Shown piece after piece: positions 1 to 13,920 of a stretch of 64,000 bases of DNA; within the stretch, counting starts at the first letter, position 1, and each line of letters begins with the position of its first letter. The DNA is taken from assembly GCF_044324785.1 (NCBI RefSeq), contig NZ_CP172127.1; one strand, given 5' to 3'. A program made the position numbers and the translations under genes. The notes under the pieces are model-generated. The model was not told where the DNA came from. It did no database searches and saw nothing but the letters and a program-made list of their open reading frames with translations. This stretch comes from Escherichia coli. Lineage in GTDB: Bacteria; Pseudomonadota; Gammaproteobacteria; Enterobacterales; Enterobacteriaceae.

Positions 1-650
1 GTTTCTGGTGCGTTTATGGCGTGATATGCCCCCCGCTTTGCTGAACCTGTCAGGAGTCTTTTTTCACCATGTGAGGTAATAGTCTGTGCTGCTGTTACTG
101 CGCCGGATTTATCCACCAGCGCCAGCAACAGAGATCCATCGGGCAACACGGGGAATGTAAAATCACCTACCCCTTTCGCAACCAGATAATCAGATTTGCC
201 GTTTACAGCCTTTCTGCGCATGTCATCAAACTGACGGGAAAACGTATCCCGTCTTTGTTGTTCGTCCTTCTCTGCCCTTTTCAGGCGCTCCTGTTCGCGT
301 CGCTGGCGCTCGGTTTCCAGTTGTTCCCGTTTCTGGCTGGTGGCTTCTGGTGTTTCCGTTGTCCGGTAATCAATACCCAGAACATCAGCGGCAAGAAGCG
401 CCGCCTCTGTTGTGTCGCAGTTATTTACGCGTTTAATTAAATCCAGCCCATCACCAGCGCCGCACTGATTACAGATGAAGCTACCGCGCCCGTTGTCATC
501 GAACCGGAATCGATCTTTGCCCCCACATGCAGGGCAGGGAGCATGACGGCGCGGAGAGTCAGGGACATTTATGTTCAGGCAGCCCAGCACATGAGGCCAG
601 TTGTTTTCAGACGCACTGATAACCTGACGGATAAGATCAATGTTTCGCAT
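1..650 (-). CDS. P4-family DNA primase, N-terminal part only (gene continues beyond window start)
   Basis: Manual translation of the minus strand from ATG at 650-648 gives MRNIDLIRQVISASENNWPHVLGCLNINVPDSPRRHAPCPACGGKDRFRFDDNGRGSFICNQCGAGDGLDLIKRV...; the CPxCGGxDRFRF...CNQCGxGDG pattern is the zinc-ribbon of P4 alpha/TraC-type primases. No stop before position 1. Confidence 0.6.
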   Translation of the reverse strand, partial: MRNIDLIRQVISASENNWPHVLGCLNINVPDSPRRHAPCPACGGKDRFRFDDNGRGSFICNQCGAGDGLDLIKRVNNCDTTEAALLAADVLGIDYRTTETPEATSQKREQLETERQRREQERLKRAEKDEQQRRDTFSRQFDDMRRKAVNGKSDYLVAKGVGDFTFPVLPDGSLLLALVDKSGAVTAAQTITSHGEKRLLTGSAKRGAYHAINAPE

Positions 651-1008
651 CACCGTACCCCACGTGGTCTATAGCGTTTGCGATATGGCTAACCAGCATC
701 TGCCACTTGGTTATTCCGTAATCAGTCAGCATGCCATCATTGTTTAGCCACATATCAAATTCAGCGGTTGTCGCAAGTTTCCACTTATCGCCGTGGACAG
801 TCCTCATTGCTGGGTACATGAATGCGCAAATCAGATCACAAACATCTGACGGCTTCAGAGATGTAGTAATGGTGCGTCCCTCTGGCGTCTGAATTGCCAT
901 TTTCTCTTCACCAGTAGAATGAAGGTTATGAATCCACACAGCACCAGCAATCTTTGCCACCTGCTCTCCGATTGCGGAGCTAAGCGCCATTTCTGCATTT
1001 TCACGCAT
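637..1008 (-). CDS. hypothetical protein (mobile element, 123 aa)
   Basis: ORF in same-strand tightly packed gene string; start/stop overlaps with neighbours suggest an operon. No recognisable motif. Confidence 0.45.
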   Translation of the reverse strand: MRENAEMALSSAIGEQVAKIAGAVWIHNLHSTGEEKMAIQTPEGRTITTSLKPSDVCDLICAFMYPAMRTVHGDKWKLATTAEFDMWLNNDGMLTDYGITKWQMLVSHIANAIDHVGYGDAKH

Positions 1009-1342
1009 GAGAACCTCCCGCTACAGTTGCGCCCATGTCATTAACCATGCTTTGCCATATCTCACGCCCGACGTCAGTCAATCCGTCCTTAGTGACGCAA
1101 CGTTCAAGAAGCTCGATCCCCACGGTTTCCCACTGCGGGTAGAACACTTTCATGGCTGCCAGTGTGTAGCTATCGATCAGGCTGCGAACGCCTTTTACTC
1201 CATTGACGATTTCCACACGGACGGCCTCGCCGTCCGCATCAACCATGAAATAGTCCCCGCCGCTGGTGGAGGTAATGTGGTTATACAGTGCCGACGCATA
1301 CTTATTTGCCAGCGCATTCAGTCGGAAATTTTTAGTAATCAT
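1001..1342 (-). CDS. hypothetical protein (mobile element, 113 aa)
   Basis: ORF overlapping the downstream ORF start by 8 nt, typical of translational coupling. No recognisable motif. Confidence 0.45.
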   Translation of the reverse strand: MITKNFRLNALANKYASALYNHITSTSGGDYFMVDADGEAVRVEIVNGVKGVRSLIDSYTLAAMKVFYPQWETVGIELLERCVTKDGLTDVGREIWQSMVNDMGATVAGGSHA

Positions 1343-1352
1343 GGCTCCATCC

Positions 1353-1955
1353 TCAGTGCGTCACTGGTTCCGCTGGCATGCCGTTTTCATTCAGTTCAGC
1401 TATAAAGCTGTTGTGAAGTTCAGCAAGCGTTTCACGCCCAAATGGAGTCAGTGCTCCTTGTTCCACATCCATCATGGCTCTGTAGAAAATGATGGCGCGT
1501 TCTGTGCCAGACTCGATGCCAAAACGTTCTATCATCGCGCCCTCAATGTTGTTTGCCATAGCGAGGCGCTCTGCTACTGGATACAGCGGCATGGCGACGA
1601 TGCCGTTGGAATAAACAGCCACTTCGGAAGGATTGCCAGTATCATCAATGATGCTGACAGTGCCGTTTTCCTCTCTCATTTCCAGCATGAATACTGTTGC
1701 GATCAGCCATCTCCACATAATGACGTTATGCTGTGATGTGTAATCGAAATATCCCTGGTTGCCGCCATCGGCAATAGCGAGATGTATTGACATACCTTCA
1801 TCTGGTTTATCGTCATAATCCCCGGCATCCAGACGATTTACGGCATCAATATATGAGATGGCCTCAACGCGTTCTGTCATGCCATCGTTGCTGCGGTACA
1901 TGATGTTTACGCCGTCAGGCGTTGCTTCTGCATGGAAAGTTAAGAAATTATTCAT
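1353..1955 (-). CDS. hypothetical protein (mobile element, about 200 aa)
   Basis: ORF 1353-2060 trimmed to the ATG at 1955-1953 (MNNFLTFHAEATPDG...) which lies 2 nt after the stop of the upstream 73-aa ORF; longer start would overlap that gene. Confidence 0.4.
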   Translation of the reverse strand: MNNFLTFHAEATPDGVNIMYRSNDGMTERVEAISYIDAVNRLDAGDYDDKPDEGMSIHLAIADGGNQGYFDYTSQHNVIMWRWLIATVFMLEMREENGTVSIIDDTGNPSEVAVYSNGIVAMPLYPVAERLAMANNIEGAMIERFGIESGTERAIIFYRAMMDVEQGALTPFGRETLAELHNSFIAELNENGMPAEPVTH

Positions 1956-2169
1956 GTTTCGCTTCGCCTGAATGATTCTGTAACTCATATTTGCCCAACA
2001 ATTCGTCCGCTTCCTGAATAGCTTCTGGTACGCCATTGAGCAGTGACATAACCGCGCCAATCATTAACTTGTCTCTGTTGCTGGGGCTGGCCCCTTCAAG
2101 CCAGAACCCTAAAACAGTCTGAACCTGTTCGATGCGACATTGCGCTTCAATGAGCTGGATGTTGGTCAT
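1948..2169 (-). CDS. hypothetical small protein (73 aa)
   Basis: ORF in operon-like array, start overlaps upstream ORF stop (2166-2169). Confidence 0.4.
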   Translation of the reverse strand: MTNIQLIEAQCRIEQVQTVLGFWLEGASPSNRDKLMIGAVMSLLNGVPEAIQEADELLGKYELQNHSGEAKHE

Positions 2170-2429
2170 TTCGCACTCTCCACATCGATTAAACCGATAT
2201 CTATCAGGGAGGTAACTTTTTGTAGCCAGCTATTGATTACTGTCGCCTGTTCCCCTCCCACCGAGGGAACAATCTCATTCATCACATGAACCAGACCTGT
2301 GCGCGCTCTGGTAAGCCGTTCAGTCGCGCAATCTGCGGGAGTGAATGTGTCTGGATATGGCTCTTCACGCCCCAGCAATGATTCAATTTCCAGCTCACAC
2401 GGATGACGATAAATTAAGTTGATATTCAT
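2166..2429 (-). CDS. hypothetical small protein (87 aa)
   Basis: ORF in operon-like array; 4-nt overlap with upstream ORF. Confidence 0.4.
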   Translation of the reverse strand: MNINLIYRHPCELEIESLLGREEPYPDTFTPADCATERLTRARTGLVHVMNEIVPSVGGEQATVINSWLQKVTSLIDIGLIDVESAK

Positions 2430-2620
2430 TTTTCACCCCCAAGAATTACCAGCTCGGCACGGGCATCGTTAACCAAAGATGAGCACGCTTTAATCGCATC
2501 CACGACATCAGCAGCGTCCATTTCTTCAGCCGAAAGACTGACAGCAACCAGGACAGCCGCTGCTTGCTCGATTAATTGAAGTGCGGACGTAAGGCGAGGG
2601 GTATTAATTGAGTTATTCAT
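2426..2620 (-). CDS. hypothetical small protein (about 64 aa)
   Basis: ORF 2426-2677 trimmed to ATG at 2620 ([10 protein letters not shown]...) preceded by a G-rich Shine-Dalgarno-like stretch. Confidence 0.35.
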   Translation of the reverse strand: MNNSINTPRLTSALQLIEQAAAVLVAVSLSAEEMDAADVVDAIKACSSLVNDARAELVILGGEK

Positions 2621-3680
2621 TGGTTGCCCCCGTTTTTCCTGGCATTTCGCCACCTTCCAGCAGGAAATGAACGTCACGAACGGCGAGATCCAATATCGCG
2701 AGTAACGCCTTCAGTCTTTCGTCTCGTGAGGGAGAGTTGCTCACCAGAATGTCGTTAATCACTTCTGTCAGTGTGATGATCTGGCTTGTGCGTTCGAGGG
2801 GATCCATATGCACATCGTAGGTTTTAATCATGAGCCACCTCCATGCGGATACGACCAGCAAAAAAGCAGACGTGATCGCGCACCAGAGAACGGCGAGCAT
2901 CGCGTTCAGACTCGGCAGCAATATGATGAATTTTGGCGGTAATTGTCGGGCAATCGCGGCGAACTGCGGCGATAATCCAGATAAATTGCGGTTTTTGGGT
3001 AGGGGTAGTAGCCAGCATGTGGCAGCCTCCATTCGATAGCATGTAACGCTACCACCGGAAACGCCAATTTCGCTGGTGGTAGCCCAGACAGGGTTGGCGT
3101 AACCGGCTCGAATGGATACCGGCGCTTCCGAAGAAGCCCCTGCCTGAGCCACCATTGATTGACAAAGGCGCTGGATTATACACCAACGCCCAAAAAATGG
3201 GTGAGTCAGACCTACGACATAAAAAAAGACGCTCGGCGCGTCATATGTCGCCATTCGATTTACCAGGACGCCAATCCCGGCACCCGTTTTATGAGGTGCC
3301 TTATAACCATAAACCGTGTTGCCGCATAACGGCAAGCTCTTTTTTATGGACTCCGAAAACTCGCTATTGGAAGCACCAGATGCACAGTACATCGCGCTCA
3401 TTTCGTTAACGTCACGCACGTGGACGAATGTTTTTGTGGAGTCACTACACGAGCGGAAGACATCATCTACGACCAGAAATTTTCTGGCGCAGCCGCTGAC
3501 CTTCTCAACGCTAACACCATCGACCGTAATTTCTGACATAGTTAAGGCATCCGCTCCCACCACCAGAAAATGATAAACTTTGCTTGTATCTGCTGTATTA
3601 ATGCCAGACTTTGCTGTCATATTGCTGGATTTTGGCGACATACCTGCCAGTGAAAATGTCTTCTTCTGGACGGTTAGCAT
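2613..3680 (-). CDS. hypothetical protein; gene structure uncertain (355-aa ORF, possibly two genes)
   Basis: Single uninterrupted ORF with a GGAGG Shine-Dalgarno 7 nt before its ATG at 3680; however a second strong GGAGGTG ribosome-binding site precedes an internal ATG at 2831 and the middle of the ORF has a W/C-rich composition atypical of real protein. Confidence 0.3.
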
Positions 3681-3856
3681 TTGTTAACCTCCGCGAACTC
3701 CTTCATGAAACGTGCCAGCGGTTGTACGCATGGCGATTGATACCCGTCGCGATAAAACGTCACTCGGTTGTGAGACACGCTTTCGACAGTAACGAGTGCT
3801 CCGTGGGCATCTTTGTAGCGTTTTTGAGGTTGTGGTGTTCCTGTCGGCTTAAACAT
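3674..3856 (-). CDS. hypothetical small protein (about 60 aa)
   Basis: ORF 3674-3943 trimmed to internal ATG (MFKPTGTPQPQK...) so that it does not run deep into the upstream gene; stop abuts the next ORF start. Confidence 0.3.
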   Translation of the reverse strand: MFKPTGTPQPQKRYKDAHGALVTVESVSHNRVTFYRDGYQSPCVQPLARFMKEFAEVNKC

Positions 3857-4682
3857 GGACCGCCTCCAGACGCTTGGCGAGCCAGCGTTGCGACAGGCGG
3901 GTGAGTTCTCCTTTGCGCTGCTCATATTCCATGCCCATATCAATTAACGTGATATTGGTGCTTTCGAGATATGAGAGGTGCTCAAGCTGTTCTGCGTTCA
4001 TATGGTCGCGAGGTTCGCCAGAATAGCCATTTATCCGCGCCCACTGCTTAGCAGTTAGCCCACCAAGAACGATACGAGAAATCATATTGCTCTCGTTTGT
4101 GTAGTGGTGTTGCTGCGTCGTTTTCCCCTGCTCGGCACGGGCCATATTCAGCGCATCGCACATTGGCTTAAAGTTGTTTGCGGCACTAATACGGGCTTTT
4201 AGCTGGCGACGATAGCGGGCGGCGATTTCAGGCACGCTACGCTGTAATTCTTCCTCGCACTGGATGAAATAACGACGGATAGCGCGACCCTGATCATTGC
4301 GTTCGATCATTGCCAGTTCTTTCGCCATTCCGACACTTAACAGATAGTCTTTGCCGGGTCTGCCAGACTGCTTAATCTTGCTGTAAGCCGCGCCATTCGG
4401 GCTTTTCCCCAAATTTGGGGAAATTGTTTTATGGACTGAGTAATCGTGCCCAATGGTGAAGTCATATTCAGAGATGCGATCAGTGATCCATGTAGAGAAG
4501 TCTTTTCCCACGCCCAACGCTTTGTGTAACGCTTTTGCGCTAACAATATTGGTTTCACGCCCACCGATATGACCAGGAATAACCGGGACAATTGCGGCAA
4601 ATTCATTACCGTTAATTGTGCCCAGAGAGGCGTTCAGATGAGGGGCGGCCTCAGAAATTAATCTGCTTTTTTCGATGTTCAT
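3849..4682 (-). CDS. phage antirepressor-like protein (AntA N-terminal / KilA-C-like C-terminal)
   Basis: 277-aa ORF; sequence features reminiscent of prophage antirepressor families (…AKALHKALGVGKDFSTWITDRI… and C-terminal …ELAMIERNDQGRAIRRYFIQCEEEL…). Family call from memory, not searched. Confidence 0.5.
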   Translation of the reverse strand: MNIEKSRLISEAAPHLNASLGTINGNEFAAIVPVIPGHIGGRETNIVSAKALHKALGVGKDFSTWITDRISEYDFTIGHDYSVHKTISPNLGKSPNGAAYSKIKQSGRPGKDYLLSVGMAKELAMIERNDQGRAIRRYFIQCEEELQRSVPEIAARYRRQLKARISAANNFKPMCDALNMARAEQGKTTQQHHYTNESNMISRIVLGGLTAKQWARINGYSGEPRDHMNAEQLEHLSYLESTNITLIDMGMEYEQRKGELTRLSQRWLAKRLEAVHV

Positions 4683-4694
4683 TTTCAGTCTCCG

Positions 4695-5126
4695 TTAGGC
4701 GGCGTTAAACGCGTCCGGGTAGAGTTTCAGAATGTCGGCAATTTCCTGCTGAGAAAGTCCGTTGTGATCATTTATGTTCGCAAGATGGTTAACATGAGTG
4801 ATCACTTTCAGAACATCACCACGGCAGGAGAAACGGTAGCGGAGGTGTGTTCCGATACCATCAGGATTCTTTTCGTCGATACGCTCCAGAATGATTCCAA
4901 GCTGGCGTTCTAACTCTGTTGCATAGTTACGACCAGAAGACAGACGGCAGTAGCGAAGAATGTCATTTTCTGTCCATCCCTCTATACCAGTACGCAGCAT
5001 ATAGACTCTGGCACGATGTTTTTTCGGTGTGCGCTTTGGTGCTTGAAGGGATTTTTTCAGGGGCGTAACATCAGACACGCGAATATCTGAATTAGCCGCC
5101 TGTAATGGGCGGTTTTTCTTTTCCAT
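4695..5126 (-). CDS. hypothetical protein (mobile element, 143 aa), basic N-terminus
   Basis: ORF immediately downstream of alpA-like gene with start/stop overlap at 5126. Confidence 0.45.
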   Translation of the reverse strand: MEKKNRPLQAANSDIRVSDVTPLKKSLQAPKRTPKKHRARVYMLRTGIEGWTENDILRYCRLSSGRNYATELERQLGIILERIDEKNPDGIGTHLRYRFSCRGDVLKVITHVNHLANINDHNGLSQQEIADILKLYPDAFNAA

Positions 5127-5329
5127 CAGGCCACCTTCCCGCGGCGTTCTGCCAGCCAGTTGTGAATCTCAACCGCATCAAACGCAGTTATTTTTTCTCC
5201 CAGCTTTACTGGACGTGGTAGTGAACCGTTTCTTACTTTACGGTCGATGGTGGATACACTAACGCCCAGCAATTCAGCCAGGCGAAAGCGTCTGATATAG
5301 CCTTTTGTAGGGATAGTGTCGATGTTCAT
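5126..5329 (-). CDS. alpA: AlpA-family prophage transcriptional regulator / excisionase-like HTH protein
   Basis: 67-aa ORF MNIDTIPTKGYIRRFRLAELLGVSVSTIDRKVRNGSLPRPVKLGEKITAFDAVEIHNWL...; size and HTH pattern match AlpA/Vis-like proteins of P4/CP4-type elements. Confidence 0.7.
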   Translation of the reverse strand: MNIDTIPTKGYIRRFRLAELLGVSVSTIDRKVRNGSLPRPVKLGEKITAFDAVEIHNWLAERRGKVA

Positions 5330-5435
5330 GATTCCCGTAACCTCTTAGCGATAGTTGTTGCTTCGTTACGAGAAATCTAGCTGTATAGATATACAATGAA
5401 AAGGTACTGTAATTTTGCAGTACCTCTATAGTAAG

Positions 5436-6386
5436 TTAACTATCCACTTTGCCATTTGCCGCAGATCGTAGATGTTTAAGAATTACATCTTCATTAGTTA
5501 TCATAAGTGGTGGAACTTCGTCTAAATGACGAACAAGACAGTCACGCCACTTCTCAGGGCTTATTTCTTTCCTTTCTCCCCTGCATTCATTTGGATACTT
5601 ACTAAGTATATAAATTGCAGATTTTAATAGTTTCTCCCTATTGACTGCGTACCGTTCGGCACGTTTATTAACTTTTAGCGTATTTATATCATTGGATAAC
5701 TTGTTTGCGGATGGTTTGTGCATGGGTCTGTCATAAATATATTTTCCTCCATTTATAAGAAGATTGTATTCATAGTCAGTTATATACATTTTGTTTCGGC
5801 TTATTTCATACCAGCCGTCAATATAAAAAGCTCCGATTTCATAATTATTCGATTTGCTAAACTCGTCACATCTCGGAGGTATCAGTTCGCATACAGAGAT
5901 CTCCCAATCATCCCATTCTGATAGCTCCCGCTCATCGTTATCTATGAACGCAGGCGGAATTGCTAATAGACCGCTCCATCTTTCGATATCTCTTTCATCC
6001 TTCCCAACATTGTATCGCTCTATAACTGAGAAATGTTCTGATTTGTATGAAAACCTCATAAAATACATATAGTTATCGCTATTTTTATAATCAAGTGATG
6101 ATAAGCCATATGATTCGAGATTATCTGCCTTATTGCTCAGATCAAGGAGATAATTCTCATGTGCTGCTTTTGTATCTATATGAAAAATACTATCTGTTTC
6201 AACTTTAAGTAATTCTGGCTCGGCATCTTCATTTTTTGGGTAATGGTAAAACAATTCAATAGGTGGAATTTTTATACATATTTCTAAAACCCCAATTGCT
6301 GCATAGTGTATTAAATCGGATACTTCACATCCGGCCAGTTTGGCTGCTTTATCCAAAGAATAATATTTATGCGCAGGTAATTTCAT
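5436..6386 (-). CDS. hypothetical cargo protein (316 aa), AT-rich, between integrase and alpA
   Basis: Long ORF with markedly AT-rich codon usage compared with flanking genes; N-terminus has an HTH-like stretch (SLDKAAKLAGCEVSDLIHYAAIG); acidic, Y/N/K-rich remainder without recognisable catalytic motif. Confidence 0.55.
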   Translation of the reverse strand: MKLPAHKYYSLDKAAKLAGCEVSDLIHYAAIGVLEICIKIPPIELFYHYPKNEDAEPELLKVETDSIFHIDTKAAHENYLLDLSNKADNLESYGLSSLDYKNSDNYMYFMRFSYKSEHFSVIERYNVGKDERDIERWSGLLAIPPAFIDNDERELSEWDDWEISVCELIPPRCDEFSKSNNYEIGAFYIDGWYEISRNKMYITDYEYNLLINGGKYIYDRPMHKPSANKLSNDINTLKVNKRAERYAVNREKLLKSAIYILSKYPNECRGERKEISPEKWRDCLVRHLDEVPPLMITNEDVILKHLRSAANGKVDS

Positions 6387-6404
6387 TATGAATCTTTCCT
6401 CTCA

Positions 6405-7658
6405 TCATGCTCTGATTGGCGTTACGTTGTAGTCTTTTCCGCTTTCCAGTGCCACCAGCAGATCTGCCCACTGTGCTAGTGCTGCTTTACGCTCATCAAA
6501 ATACTGATGACGGTTATAAATCCCCTCTACGCCCTTAATGCGATGATTGAGGCATCGTTCCGCCACGACAGGATCAACACCCAATGCTGCTAAATGAGTA
6601 CGTGCGGTGCGTCGGAAGTCGTGAATCGTGAAATTAGGCACATCCGGAATTTCGGCGCGAACCTTAGCCAGTGCTACGGGTAAAGTGCTTTCCTGAATAT
6701 GTGGGATCATTCTGTTTTGCATCTTCCTGGCCGGAAGCACCCATGCGCTATTACATGAAAAGGTGTGTAGCTCTCTCAACCATTCAACGGCTGGGGAAGG
6801 TAGAGGTATATCAATAGGGTCTCCGTTTTTGCTGCGTTCTTCCGGCAAATGCCATACCGCACCATCTAAATCAAACTCTTCCCATCGTGCGGCGCATAAC
6901 TCCATCTTACGAACGCATAGTGCCAGCAATAGTTTAAATGTCAGTTCGTTTTGGCGGCTGAATCCTTTTGCGGTGCGCATAGCCTCGAATAGTCTGATAA
7001 GCTCATCGCGAGTTAGCCAACGGTCGCGGGAAACCTCTTTACCACCAGCATCAGATACTTCAAACGCTGAACAAGGGTTTATCTCCAGAGCGTGGCGTTT
7101 TATCCCATAGTCAAAGATACGGCGTGTCCAGCGCAATACATCTGTTGCTATCGTTGGTGCTCCTCGGTCAACGATACCTTTCAACATGTCGTCAATGTGG
7201 CGTGGCTTAACGTCCTCTACCTTCATATGCCCAATGCAGGGGTTAATATCCTTATCAATTCTCCGGCGAAGGATATCGGGATGTTTCCATCTCGGAAGTA
7301 TCTGGCGCTCGAAGTATTCGGAGGCCAGATCTGAAACACGCATGGCGTTTTTCTCAGCCTCCATTTTTGCCAGTGCTTCAGCTTTTCGTTCCTGTTTCTC
7401 TGCTGCTACGTCATAGCCAAGAGCAACTCTGGCTGACAGCTCTTTTGCTGTTTCTCTGGCTTTTGATAGTGACAGTTCGGAGTAAGAGCCTATAACCATA
7501 GCCCGCTGCTTTCCTGCGAGCTTATAGCGGAATCGCCAGAACGGGACTGTGTAGTTTTTGGGGTAGCAAATATAAAGGCCGTTGCCGTCTGCCTTGCCAT
7601 CAAATCTGTCTCCCGCCTTTATCCATGCGCGGATCTGCATATCTGTGAGTTTTGGCAT
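6405..7658 (-). CDS. int: tyrosine site-specific integrase, P4-type
   Basis: ORF 6405-7742 trimmed to MPKLTDMQIRAWIKAGDRFDG... (typical P4-integrase N-terminus); C-terminal catalytic region contains ...HDFRRTARTHLAALGV... and ...GIYNRHQY... (R/H-x-x-R/Y signature). Confidence 0.85.
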   Translation of the reverse strand: MPKLTDMQIRAWIKAGDRFDGKADGNGLYICYPKNYTVPFWRFRYKLAGKQRAMVIGSYSELSLSKARETAKELSARVALGYDVAAEKQERKAEALAKMEAEKNAMRVSDLASEYFERQILPRWKHPDILRRRIDKDINPCIGHMKVEDVKPRHIDDMLKGIVDRGAPTIATDVLRWTRRIFDYGIKRHALEINPCSAFEVSDAGGKEVSRDRWLTRDELIRLFEAMRTAKGFSRQNELTFKLLLALCVRKMELCAARWEEFDLDGAVWHLPEERSKNGDPIDIPLPSPAVEWLRELHTFSCNSAWVLPARKMQNRMIPHIQESTLPVALAKVRAEIPDVPNFTIHDFRRTARTHLAALGVDPVVAERCLNHRIKGVEGIYNRHQYFDERKAALAQWADLLVALESGKDYNVTPIRA

Positions 7659-7686
7659 TGCGAATACCTGAATATCGAATATGGGT

Positions 7687-7738
7687 GTGTACATAAAGCA
7701 ATGTACATGAAAGTCATTATGTACACCTCTATGTACAC
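7687..7738. promoter_or_regulatory. four direct copies of ATGTACA-like motif just upstream of int: candidate integrase arm-type binding sites / att region
   Basis: gtgtacat (7687-7694), atgtacatg (7701-7709), atgtacac (7719-7726), atgtacac (7731-7738) visible directly in sequence. Confidence 0.35.
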
Positions 7739-7783
7739 GCATATTGTGCGCTTTGTTGCGTCGTTATGATAGCTCATGATAAC

Positions 7784-7820
7784 AAAAAAGCCCGACATTT
7801 CGCGGGCTTTGTGGTTTTTT
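7784..7820. terminator. bidirectional rho-independent terminator downstream of yicC
   Basis: aaaaaagcccg-acatttcg-cgggctttgtggtttttt: GC stem flanked by A-run and T-run. Confidence 0.5.
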
Positions 7821-7846
7821 GCTGCTTGGTGATTTTTACTGATAGC

Positions 7847-8710
7847 TTATTCGATATTCTGGATCTGCTCGCGCATCTGCTCAATCAACACTTTCAGCTC
7901 GATGGCGGAGTTTGTCACTTCGGCATTGATAGACTTCGAAGCAAGAGTGTTCGACTCGCGGTTGAACTCCTGCATCATAAAGTCCAGACGACGGCCAACC
8001 GCTTCTTTTTTCTTCAGAATGTTGTAGGTCTCTTTGACATGCGCTTCGAGGCGATCCAGTTCTTCGGCAACGTCAATTCGTTGTGCCAGCAGAACCAACT
8101 CCTGCTCCAGACGGTTGTTTTCCAGTTGCACCTGAGCATCTTCCAGCTTCGCGACCAGACGCTCACGCTGCCATTGCAGGATTTCCGGCATATGGGCGCG
8201 GACTTTGACCACTTCGGCGGTGACGCCTTCCAGACGCTGCTCGATCAATGCTTTCAGCGCCTGACCTTCGGTTTCGCGCGCGACGATAAAGTCGTCCAGC
8301 GTACCATCCAACGCCGCGAGAATTTCAGCGGCAATCGCGTCGAGATCCTGCTCCTGGGCTGCCATCACGCCCGGCCAGCGTAGAATATCAACCGGGTTGA
8401 TTTCCCCTTCGTCACTCTGCATTTTTACCCAGTTCGCGGCAGTTACCAGCTGTTTAGCCAGTTTTTCGTTAAGGATCAGCTCACCTTGTGCGCTAACATC
8501 TGGCTCATAACGCAGGGTACATTCCACTTTACCGCGCGTCAGGCGAGAACGAATACGCTCGCGAACGACAGGTTCAAGGCTACGGAACTGCTCCGGCAGA
8601 CGAAAGTAAGTTTCCAGATAACGCTGGTTTACCGAGCGCATTTCCCAGGTTGCGCTCCCCCATTCACCCTTGATTTCACGCCGGGCGTAGGCGGTCATAC
8701 TGCGGATCAT
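7847..8710 (-). CDS. yicC: YicC family stress-induced protein
   Basis: 287-aa ORF MIRSMTAYARREIKGEWGSATWEMRSVNQRYLETYFRLPEQFR... recognised as YicC; conserved position next to rph. Confidence 0.9.
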   Translation of the reverse strand: MIRSMTAYARREIKGEWGSATWEMRSVNQRYLETYFRLPEQFRSLEPVVRERIRSRLTRGKVECTLRYEPDVSAQGELILNEKLAKQLVTAANWVKMQSDEGEINPVDILRWPGVMAAQEQDLDAIAAEILAALDGTLDDFIVARETEGQALKALIEQRLEGVTAEVVKVRAHMPEILQWQRERLVAKLEDAQVQLENNRLEQELVLLAQRIDVAEELDRLEAHVKETYNILKKKEAVGRRLDFMMQEFNRESNTLASKSINAEVTNSAIELKVLIEQMREQIQNIE

Positions 8711-10525: not shown

Positions 10526-10557
10526 CCTCTTTTGGCCGCCGTGATGTGGAGAGTGGA

Positions 10558-11517
10558 ATGGATGCTACCCGGATAACCCTTCTGGCGCTCGATTTGTTCG
10601 GCTCGCCGGGCTGGAGCGCCGATAAAGAAATACAGCGGCTGTATGCGCTCAGTAATCATGCCGGACGCCATTACCGACGCATTATTCTTTCTAAACGCCA
10701 CGGTGGTCAGCGGCTGGTGTTAGCCCCTGATTACTTGCTCAAAACCGTACAGCGCAACATTCTTAAGAACGTTCTTTCACAATTTCCGCTTTCCCCTTTT
10801 GCTACAGCCTACCGACCAGGTTGCCCAATTGTCAGCAACGCGCAGCCTCACAGCCAACAGCCACAAATACTGAAACTCGATATCGAAAACTTTTTCGATA
10901 GTATTAGCTGGTTACAGGTCTGGCGTGTGTTTCGCCAGGCCCAGTTGCCACGTAATGTGGTAACCATGCTGACCTGGATTTGTTGTTATAACGACGCGTT
11001 ACCGCAGGGGGCACCAACTTCGCCAGCCATTTCCAATCTTGTGATGCGCTGTTTTGATGAGTGCATCGGGGCATGGTGCCAGGCACGAGGAATTACCTAC
11101 ACCCGCTACTGCGATGACATGACTTTTTCAGGTCACTTCAATGCCCGCCAGGTTAAAAATAAAGTGTGCGGATTGTTAGCGGAGATGGGCCTGAGCCTCA
11201 ATCAACGCAAAAGCTCCCTGATAGCTGCCTGTAAGCGCCAGCAGGTAACCGGGATTGTTGTTAATCACAAACCACAGCTTGCCCGCGAAGCGCGGCGGGC
11301 GCTGCGTCAGGAAGTACACTTATGCCAAAAATATGGCGTCATTTCGCATCTTAGTCGTCGTGGTGAACTTGATCCTTCATGCGATCTCCATGCACAGGCA
11401 ACGGCGTATCTTTATGCTTTGCAGGGAAGAATAAACTGGCTATTGCAAATCAATCCTGAGGATGAGGCCTTTAAACAGGCGAGGGAAAGTGTAAAGCGAA
11501 TGCTGTTGGCATGGTAA
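10558..11517 (+). CDS. ret: retron-type reverse transcriptase (319 aa)
   Basis: Start at ATG 10558 preceded by GGAGAG; contains RT motifs ...LPQGAPTSPAISNL... and ...ITYTRYCDDMTFSG... (YxDD box); size typical of retron RTs with no extra fused domain. Confidence 0.9.
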   Translation: MDATRITLLALDLFGSPGWSADKEIQRLYALSNHAGRHYRRIILSKRHGGQRLVLAPDYLLKTVQRNILKNVLSQFPLSPFATAYRPGCPIVSNAQPHSQQPQILKLDIENFFDSISWLQVWRVFRQAQLPRNVVTMLTWICCYNDALPQGAPTSPAISNLVMRCFDECIGAWCQARGITYTRYCDDMTFSGHFNARQVKNKVCGLLAEMGLSLNQRKSSLIAACKRQQVTGIVVNHKPQLAREARRALRQEVHLCQKYGVISHLSRRGELDPSCDLHAQATAYLYALQGRINWLLQINPEDEAFKQARESVKRMLLAW

Positions 11518-12722: not shown

Positions 12723-13920
12723 AACGGGTCACGATCTCGTCGAGTAATAATTGGCCAAGGAGCTCTTTGCGCTCAAGCGGTAAGACTTTATCTCCGTCCT
12801 GCCAGAAAAGGTGTAATGCGTTGTTGTCGCTGTTAAATCCTTGAGTTGGCTGGGAAACATCGTTCGCGCAGATCAGATCAAGGTTTTTACGGATACGTTT
12901 TTGCCGGGCGTATTCTTCCACATTATTTGTTTCGGCGGCAAATCCAACGACGTAGGGTCGATGGTCTTTTAGTGCGGCAACGCCTGCGACGATATCGGGG
13001 TTTTTAACCATTTTTATTGTTAATTCATCACCCTGCGTGGCCTGCTTTTTGATTTTCTCTGGGGCCACGGTAGCTGCGCGATAATCCGCCACGGCGGCGC
13101 AACCGATAAAAATATTTTGCTGCTGTACAGAAGCATTCACGGCCGCTTCCATTTCCAGCGCAGTCATCACATCAACACGTTTAACAAACGGTGGCGTCGG
13201 TAGTGAAACCGGACCTGATACCAGCGTGACGTTCGCGCCACGACGGGCAGCGGCGGCGGCGATAGCAAAACCCATCTTGCCTGAGCTGTGATTAGAGATA
13301 TAACGCACCGGATCGAGCGGTTCACGCGTCGGGCCGGCGGTAATCATAATGCTCAGATGTTTCAGGTCGTTGACGGGCGAAAAATGCGCTACCGCCATAT
13401 CAACAATGGTTAACGGATCGAGCATTCGCCCAGGGCCGATATCACCACAAGCCTGACTGCCACTGTCTGGCCCCCAGATGAGCAAACCACGGGAAGCAAG
13501 CACCTCTAAATTATGCTGCGTGGCAGCGGCACGGTACATCTGCTGGTTCATGGCGGGGAGCACGGCTACAGGCGCAGGAGTGGCCAGACAAATCGTCGAT
13601 ACCAGATCATTCGCCATTCCGGCAGCAACACGGGCAATCAAATCTGCCGTGGCAGGGGCGAGAATCACTAAATCAGCCCATTTACCCAGCTCAATATGGC
13701 CCATTGCGGCTTCGGCTGCCGGGTCCAGCAGACTGTCGGAAACGGGATACCCAGAAACCGCCTGCAAGCTAAGTGGGGTGATAAAGGCTTTTGCCGCTTC
13801 GGTCATGGCTACGCGGACGTCGGCCCCGCGCTCGCGCAAACGACGCACCAGTTCAGGGGTTTTATAGGCAGCAATACCGCCGCTAACGCCGAGAACGATT
13901 TTTTTACCGGCCAGGCTCAT
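12700..13920 (-). CDS. coaBC: bifunctional phosphopantothenoylcysteine decarboxylase / synthetase
   Basis: ORF trimmed to [37 protein letters not shown]... Confidence 0.9.

Follow-up and report, generated by a model that had tools for sequence, protein, structure and literature searches.

The stretch of Escherichia coli DNA analysed here (64,000 nucleotides of contig NZ_CP172127.1, hereafter the window) carries near its first position one end of an integrated island that lies next to the host gene yicC (7847-8710, minus strand). The 3' end of yicC has been rebuilt by the element, and rph and pyrE follow it. The island gene next to yicC encodes a P4-like tyrosine integrase, Int (6405-7658, minus strand), and between the two genes, 34-78 bp upstream of int, lies a cluster of four short repeats. 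This cluster (7687-7738) reads gtgtacataaagcaatgtacatgaaagtcattatgtacacctctatgtacac in the window, and the hexamer TGTACA starts in it at 7688, 7702, 7720 and 7732. The present analysis concerns the function of these repeats as candidate arm-type sites of the integrase. Window position 1 falls inside a primase gene and the other end of the island lies outside the window, and complete relatives of the island were used for that end.

The total number of TGTACA copies in the 64 kb was not above chance, since 10 were found, six of them outside the cluster, as against 12.1 expected; it is therefore the clustering which is unusual. In two sets of 1000 first-order Markov sequences of 64 kb each, the maximum number of TGTACA per 52 bp was 1-2, with three copies reached in one run per set and four copies in none of the 2000 runs. 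The cluster is real and non-random. An initial annotation of this DNA had placed the repeats immediately upstream of the integrase. This holds for the int start at 7658 (MPKLTD...), which is the start in RefSeq annotations as well as in all homologues, but not for the longest open reading frame (ORF), which extends across the repeats to 7742.

Since TGTACA is palindromic, the orientation of each repeat had to come from its flanks, and we scored the five bases 3' of GTAC. Compared with sites 3 and 4, the flanks of site 1 agreed at 144 of 190 positions in the reversed reading and at 76 of 190 in the forward reading (38 related arms), and those of site 2 at 83 of 115 and 41 of 115 positions, respectively. 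As the reversed flanks matched better, the unit is an asymmetric 12-mer, RTGTAC plus 5 nt. Predicted arm-type site 1 (7687-7698, plus strand, GTGTACATAAAG) is the nearest to int, 34 nt separating its GTAC core from the int ATG, and site 2 (7701-7712, plus strand, ATGTACATGAAA) is the weakest and least conserved of the predicted sites. Predicted site 3 (7715-7726, minus strand, GTGTACATAATG) adjoins predicted site 4 (7727-7738, minus strand, GTGTACATAGAG) at a centre-to-centre distance of 12 bp, and the GTAC core of site 4 lies 110 bp from the yicC stop codon. Counted from site 4, the spacings between successive sites are 12, 18 and 14 bp. The four copies described initially as ATGTACA-type direct repeats are indeed present, but they are direct repeats only in their palindromic core, as full sites they form two pairs which face each other.

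Genomes with an empty site align with the window only from about 7845-7847 onward, which corresponds to the yicC stop codon, and hence the sites lie inside the arm of the element. The attachment core was defined by comparing the K-12-type empty attB with both junctions of complete relatives. In the window it is TTATTCGATATTCTGGATCTG (7847-7867), the final 21 bp of yicC, stop codon included, and in the relatives the same 21 bp core (TTATTCGATGTTCTGAATCTG) is duplicated at the dinD-side junction. The repeats therefore do lie between the int start and the element boundary, as had been proposed initially. The RTGTAC+5 sites are unrelated in sequence to the core. Small deletions have affected the dinD-side core in several E. 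coli relatives (locus L002, 28942-28955; L076, about 717-732; L006, about 13172-13181), where TTATTCGGAATCTG, TTACTCATTGAATCTG and TCTGAATCTG are found as compared to the 21 bp attB core.

The other end of the island was read in complete relatives. Strain AH25, the closest of these, is 99.2% identical over window positions 1-7900, and the int arm of strain A20 is identical to that of the window. In each of the two, GTGTACATAAGGGTGTACATAATC stands at the dinD-side end, some 70 bp inward from the duplicated core. This end reads ...GATTATGTACACCCTTATGTACACGG...; turned to the direction of int, the sequence becomes GTGTACATAAGG GTGTACATAATC and repeats the 12-mers of window sites 4 and 3. Sites 4 and 3 of the near arm are oriented like this far pair, and sites 2 and 1 are opposite to it. 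Six of the seven TGTACA in the 21.1 kb AH25 locus belong to the arms (four near, two far), and TGTACATA has no copy outside them. The far-arm pair was also present in 11 further elements, from E. coli, Erwinia, Aeromonas, Zobellella, Tenebrionibacter and Pantoea. The check suggested in the initial annotation, a search for the same motif at the other element end, thus returned a tandem pair in AH25, A20 and these 11 elements.

For a wider comparison we scanned one genome per species for the integrase and obtained 67 loci, 36 of them with integrases 61-92% identical to the query. The 36 loci came from Tatumella, Enterobacter, Rosenbergiella, Rouxiella, Pantoea, Erwinia, Yersinia, Rahnella, Serratia, Kosakonia, Aeromonas, Tolumonas, Zobellella, Vogesella, Azonexus and Rhodocyclaceae. 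Almost all of the related elements lie directly 3' of yicC (...EQMREQIQNIE*) and share one layout: some 40 bp separate the core from a G+C-rich hairpin with a T-run, and some 45 bp lie between this hairpin and the GTAC sites, which are followed by int. In 36 of 37 arms, of gamma- or betaproteobacterial origin, the GTAC of the first site, site 4, lay 109-111 bp from the yicC stop codon. All far arms (n=13) carried the tandem GTAC-N8-GTAC, and in 11 of these 13 the second GTAC was exactly 69 bp before the core. Between site 1 and the int ATG, on the other hand, the spacing varied from 15 to 45 nt, the last site in Pantoea being 15 nt away. As the distance to the core is fixed and that to int is variable, the sites are phased to the core and not to int.

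The sites are also the conserved part of the arm. In an alignment of 35 near arms with a mean column identity of 53%, the only invariant columns upstream of int were TG.AC, TG..C and GT..A, within sites 4, 3 and 1, and the GTAC of site 1 was invariant or nearly so. The GTAC-N8-GTAC pair formed by sites 3 and 4 was a feature of almost every related arm. Across the 628 kb of related loci it was found 46 times, about 36 times in near arms and seven times in far arms, the rest being at chance level.

The integrase itself has a separate predicted arm-binding domain. Pfam matches covered an N-terminal Arm-DNA-bind_3 domain (residues 4-90, E = 7.9e-20), a central and a catalytic domain, and the central domain matched structure 2kj5 (E = 3.8e-44). 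An AlphaFold model of Int residues 1-100 had a pLDDT of 92 and matched 3jtz, 3rmp and 3ju0 with a Foldseek probability of 1.0, TM values of 0.86-0.89 on the target and 27-29% identity. A phmmer comparison of Int with the arm-binding domains of the HPI and HAI7 integrases gave E values of 1.5e-6 and 4.2e-6. Among the related integrases the first 100 residues of Int showed a mean identity of 83%, except for a hypervariable patch at residues 31-40, which in the AlphaFold model runs from the end of strand beta2 through a loop into the beginning of beta3.

This patch varies together with the flanks of the GTAC sites. Mutual information with the site flanks was highest at Int columns 40, 31, 36, 37 and 35, and the flanks fell into 4-5 classes. 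Class 1 has GTACATA / TATGTACAC and Int 27-41 of the form GLY[IL]C[YF]P..Y..PFW, and includes the window and loci L006, L012, L020 and L021. Class 2 has GTACACCT / GGTGTACAC with GLYLSYRENYQTPVW at Int 27-41, class 3 has GTAC[AC]CAA / TGGGTACAC with GLYLR[YFH]R..D..P[TS]W, and class 4 has GTACCAA / TTGGTACA with GLYLC[YH]R..F..PKW. The resulting pairings of patch and flank are C..Y...F with ATAA, S..Y...V with ACCT, R..D...T/S with MCAA and C..F...K with CAAA. The class of the Int patch was the class of the flank in 33 of 33 clear cases, L035 being ambiguous. To give one contrast, Int residues 31-40 are CYPKNYTVPF in the window and RYREADKTPT in L005, and the corresponding sites are GTGTACATAA and GTGTACCCAA. 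The core of the site can change as well. In two betaproteobacterial arms, from Azonexus and a related metagenome-assembled genome, GTGCAC replaces GTAC. This holds for every one of the three sites of L037 and for three of the four of L036, whose site 3 reads GTGAAC, and FEQRGDG at Int residues 19-25 is exclusive to these two elements. The two arms of an element resemble one another also, the flanks of near and far sites matching at 10.1 of 14 positions within elements as compared to 8.0 of 14 between elements, a value reached in none of 20000 permutations.

We therefore propose that the four repeats are, in all likelihood, the int-proximal arm-type sites of a heterobivalent P4-like tyrosine integrase, and that the island, about 20 kb in size, is integrated in the last 21 bp of yicC. 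The earlier suggestion of arm-type sites marking the att arm is thereby supported, as the motif is found on both arms and its flanks follow the arm-binding domain of Int. The excised attP, read in the direction of int, would consist of two tandem sites, 69 bp, the 21 bp core, about 110 bp, sites 4 and 3, the inverted sites 2 and 1, and int; the stretch of about 110 bp would hold the terminator hairpin and a second repeat family. We infer that Int binds the arm sites and that they are needed in recombination. By analogy with lambda-type integrases, the N-terminal Arm-DNA-bind_3 domain would bind the six RTGTAC+5 sites while the C-terminal domains of the same protomers would bind the core, and such bridging would fold the 69 bp and 110 bp arms into a synaptic complex for integration. 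An AlpA-like factor, for its part, would bind the inner repeats of the int-proximal arm and thereby favour excision.

The sites may in addition affect the expression of int. On the minus strand the order is core, hairpin, sites and int, so that int reads away from the core, and in all arms the sites lie 15-89 nt before the int ATG. Since they are placed just upstream of the ATG, occupancy by Int would be likely to lower int expression, and Int on the near-arm sites probably damps its own synthesis, as IntS of KplE1 does, although this part of the proposal is weaker. The initial annotation had called the segment the int promoter region. A scan of 7400-8000 for sigma-70-like promoters gave no match, and neither a conserved -10 nor a convincing -35/-10 pair was found when the aligned arms were read by eye, so that this label is derived from the position of the segment.

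Several points weigh against the assignment to the integrase. Site 2 is often degenerate or missing, its GTAC, the fourth in the arm, being missing in 15 of 38 related arms. Many copies of the island may, judging from their core deletions, no longer recombine or excise. The far arms of L006 and L007 resemble class 3 and are unlike their own near arms. The joint variation of Int patch and sites is confounded, as both lie within about 200 bp of each other and one recombination block could carry the two together, and the flank classes are largely clades, which leaves few independent events (4-5); linkage and shared descent thus contribute to the pattern. RNAalifold predicted a 10 bp helix between site 4 and site 1 in which six pairs are changed on both sides, a fold which could stand in place of protein binding at the sites or beside it. 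With no sigma-70 promoter located, autoregulation would be without an anchor. Finally, the case is built wholly on sequence comparison.

The repeats could instead be operators of the AlpA-family protein of the island, acting as an excisionase or as an activator of int, in place of sites for the integrase. This helix-turn-helix (HTH) protein of 67 aa (5126-5329, minus strand) matches Pfam Phage_AlpA and, weakly, the 'excise' family; its gene lies 1.3 kb downstream of int, and the protein probably serves the island as excisionase or activator. Proteins of the AlpA family trigger excision or work as excisionases alongside P4-like integrases, as does AlpA of CP4So (PMC5148205), and AlpA is the master activator of Gram-negative phage-inducible chromosomal islands (PICIs) (PMC6092414). 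The missing consensus promoter would fit an activator-dependent int, and any AlpA variant could read the shared GTAC core. However, the sites do not follow the protein. AlpA is 97-100% identical among the window (class 1), L007 (class 2) and L005 (class 3), so that three site classes occur with one AlpA, whereas in A20 and L006 AlpA is merely 69-70% identical to that of the window and the window's sites are kept. The sequence of directionality-factor sites should follow the variant of the factor, and that of the GTAC sites does not.

It is a second repeat family which follows the AlpA type. This family (7757-7846) lies between the core and the GTAC sites, flanks the hairpin, and consists in the window of TGCGTC (7757-7762), TGATAGC (7767-7773), TGATAAC (7777-7783), TGATTTT (7830-7836) and TGATAGC (7840-7846). 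In L021 and L025, which differ in Int class (1 and 3, respectively), these inner repeats are replaced by five copies of ACTCC(G), and both loci share a different AlpA type (MDTLPKSGYMRP...STLWNWVKKGK). TATCA/GACGCA repeats thus go with AlpA type alpha and the five ACTCC(G) with type beta, which points to a two-by-two dissociation whereby GTAC flanks follow Int and inner repeats follow AlpA. The sites of directionality factors are usually on one arm, between the arm sites and the core. The inner repeats fit this pattern, whereas the GTAC sites, being on both arms, do not, and the inner repeats are likely candidates for the binding sites of the AlpA-like factor. As between integrase and regulator, these comparisons favour the integrase as the reader of the GTAC sites, and we consider operators of AlpA at this place improbable.

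The inverted pairs could also be the two halves of a conserved hairpin, either in an int-leader RNA or as a DNA cruciform, which controls int. Besides the RNAalifold helix given above, folding of the window RNA gave z = -2.9, with two of 200 shuffles folding as well, and there were weak Rfam matches to miRNA-like hairpins. These matches were all far below threshold; Rfam on 7400-8000 gave nothing at or near threshold, and the weak matches to Trp-leader and miRNA-like models there are chance. Inverted copies of one protein-binding site would, however, yield the same covariation as the stem. An A.G mismatch in the middle of the stem is kept in ten sequences. Sites 3 and 2, which would form the inner pair, show no conserved pairing, as many arms have lost site 2. 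A hairpin also leaves unexplained the tandem site 3, the far pair, 10-20 kb off in the integrated state, and its co-variation with the near arm, as well as the phasing to the core. It is thus unlikely that the sites are stem halves.

Binding by another regulator, such as a host factor or an island repressor of int, with no role of the repeats in recombination, would fit their palindromic core (TGTACA; GGTGTACACC in class 2) and their place directly upstream of a gene. The full sites are asymmetric, however, the motif is confined to the two att arms and absent from other promoters of the island, and the flank classes differ among E. coli strains having the same host factors. No candidate regulator co-varies with the sites, and we regard this explanation as very unlikely. 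Chance, or a decaying repeat without function, is effectively refuted by the simulations, in which four copies per 52 bp never arose, together with the conservation, as the only invariant columns across arms of Gamma- and Betaproteobacteria fall within the sites, even though short AT-rich motifs can recur in intergenic DNA.

With the repeats taken as arm-type sites of Int, the flank classes raise a further idea, which we put forward tentatively and which may well prove wrong: integrases targeting yicC could have diversified into at least 4-5 arm-specificity classes via the loop at residues 31-40, with matching changes in the flanks on both arms. If this were true and adaptive, islands competing for one attB, or standing in tandem at it, would be mutually orthogonal in excision, and the pairings would amount to a natural code by which the arm-binding domains of P4-type integrases could be reprogrammed. 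Specificity classes, if real, would be of use in orthogonal integrase systems and would help to explain how satellites share one attachment site.

Tandem elements at yicC were seen in a few of the related loci. A contig of Erwinia psidii (L040, L024) carries two intact integrases 12.7 kb apart, of arm classes 2 and 3, and in Pantoea stewartii (L020, 9715-9900) a far arm of class-4 type lies directly upstream of a class-1 int. In E. endophytica (L023, 20633-21245) the first element is followed by the decayed remains of a second int. One E. coli record with two matches proved to hold a single element. With two to three cases, one of them a decayed remnant, there were too few to establish a consistent difference in arm class between tandem elements.

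Two other features of the arm lie close to the sites. A G+C-rich hairpin with T-runs on both strands (7787-7810) is borne by the element and is kept at this position in all related arms. It replaces the displaced terminator of yicC and keeps yicC transcription from reading into int. An inverted copy of a core-type half-site (7667-7681, CCTGAATATCGAATA) lies just upstream of the int start, matches the core at 14 of 15 positions (7848-7862) and overlaps the Shine-Dalgarno AGG of int. The copy is looser in most relatives (TATTCAATGTTCAGG) and absent from several lineages, and in the relatives no consistent co-variation of 7667-7681 with the core was found, matches being 7-11 of 16. It could be an extra core-type site for Int, or could pair with the core in read-through RNA.

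Islands of this family are 10-20 kb in size and encode, besides Int and the AlpA-family HTH protein, an AntA antirepressor, ash and icd-like products, a TOPRIM/P4-type primase, SSB and PerC-type regulators. By its gene content the island looks like a Gram-negative PICI or a phage satellite. Its closest complete relatives (AH25/A20 type) also carry genes for phage DNA ejection and a lytic transglycosylase, and the smaller relatives L005 and L007 better fit the definition of a PICI, which calls for int, alpA and a primase/replication module, for no phage structural or lysis genes, and for a size of about 12-20 kb. The arm region was matched in 546 of 5426 complete E. coli genomes (about 10%), and the family is also present in many other genera. 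Two Rfam matches above threshold were obtained inside the island, C4 antisense RNA (3072-3159, minus strand, 79.5 bits) and isrK (3222-3299, minus strand, 67.1 bits). They lie within a region which is called 'ash family protein' in relatives and adjoins antA, with an icd-like gene there in some, and the region resembles an antisense-RNA immunity module of P1/P4 type.

Some further observations concern the surroundings of the island and its relatives. An ISL3-family transposase lies in the dinD promoter/LexA-box region beside the island in L002 (27483-28703) and L008 (14034-15254), and the island-side segment of L008 holds a second copy of dinD. GTACGCA occurs in three to four copies with a spacing of about 11-12 bp, far from the att arms, in L010 (about 17255), L012 (about 17733), L018 (about 20949) and L041 (about 12134); this array may be iteron- or origin-like. 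In the window, an ORF of 323 aa for a retron-type reverse transcriptase (10546-11517, plus strand) lies between pyrE and slmA. It scored 226.7 bits against NCBIfam retron_St85_RT, just below the cut-off of 235. Strain A20 has no insert at this position, and Rfam gave nothing above threshold nearby.

For annotation, the analysis sets the int start to 7658, places the boundary of the island in the last 21 bp of yicC and yields an attP anatomy with a core, a terminator, two kinds of predicted protein-binding repeats and six arm sites. It also offers a case for how a P4-type integrase reads its arms, in which natural variants separate the contribution of Int from that of the AlpA-like protein. Arm-type sites beside an integrase gene are expected biology, although comparison across many bacteria supports these unusually well; less routine is that integrases sharing one attB seem to have diversified in arm specificity. 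Islands integrated in yicC have been reported in Shewanella and Pseudoalteromonas (PMC8978831). In the literature we found neither this set of sites described nor any mention that the island family uses yicC as its E. coli att site, and no paper linking yicC, dinD and this integrase or PICIs. Int and its arm had no DNA match in the phage collection, where the best phage integrase was 34% identical, and hence there was no characterised phage attP to serve as a guide.

In attP of the lambda type, the arm motif is unlike the core, is found in tandem on both arms at fixed distances from the core and in mixed orientations, and is read by the N-terminal domain of Int (summarised in PMC2951348). The sites of the yicC island resemble the lambda-type P and P' sites in motif and placement, and would likewise be read by an N-terminal domain. 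In contrast to lambda, Int of the yicC island is of P4 type with the Arm-DNA-bind_3 fold rather than the lambda N-domain, the motif RTGTAC+5 and the layout (two sites, core, two plus two) are its own, and the target is the 3' end of a protein-coding gene and not an intergenic site or a tRNA gene. The integrases of Yersinia HPI and of HAI7 (3jtz, 3rmp, 3ju0), also P4-like, have the same predicted arm-binding fold at an identity of about 28%, the comparison being one of protein fold. In gene content (int, alpA, antirepressor, ash/icd, primase, PerC-type), in its size of 10-20 kb and in its dedicated att site the island is like the Gram-negative PICIs EcCICFT073 and EcCIMP1 and P4-like satellites (PMC6092414, PMC11773190); arm-type sites are not described in those papers, and the AH25/A20 relatives add the DNA-ejection and transglycosylase genes.

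A parallel in arrangement is KplE1 (CPS-53), where the attL arm overlaps the intS promoter, IntS and TorI give negative autoregulation, and the promoter, start sites and repression were mapped experimentally (PMC2951348). As in KplE1, int of the yicC island is transcribed away from att and has the sites in its upstream region. The two differ in that the promoter of the yicC island is not recognisable and its features are known from sequence, and in that an AlpA-type protein stands in place of TorI as its directionality factor. Arm-type sites of a heterobivalent integrase, in an att arm which overlaps the upstream region of int, are thus a known kind of feature.

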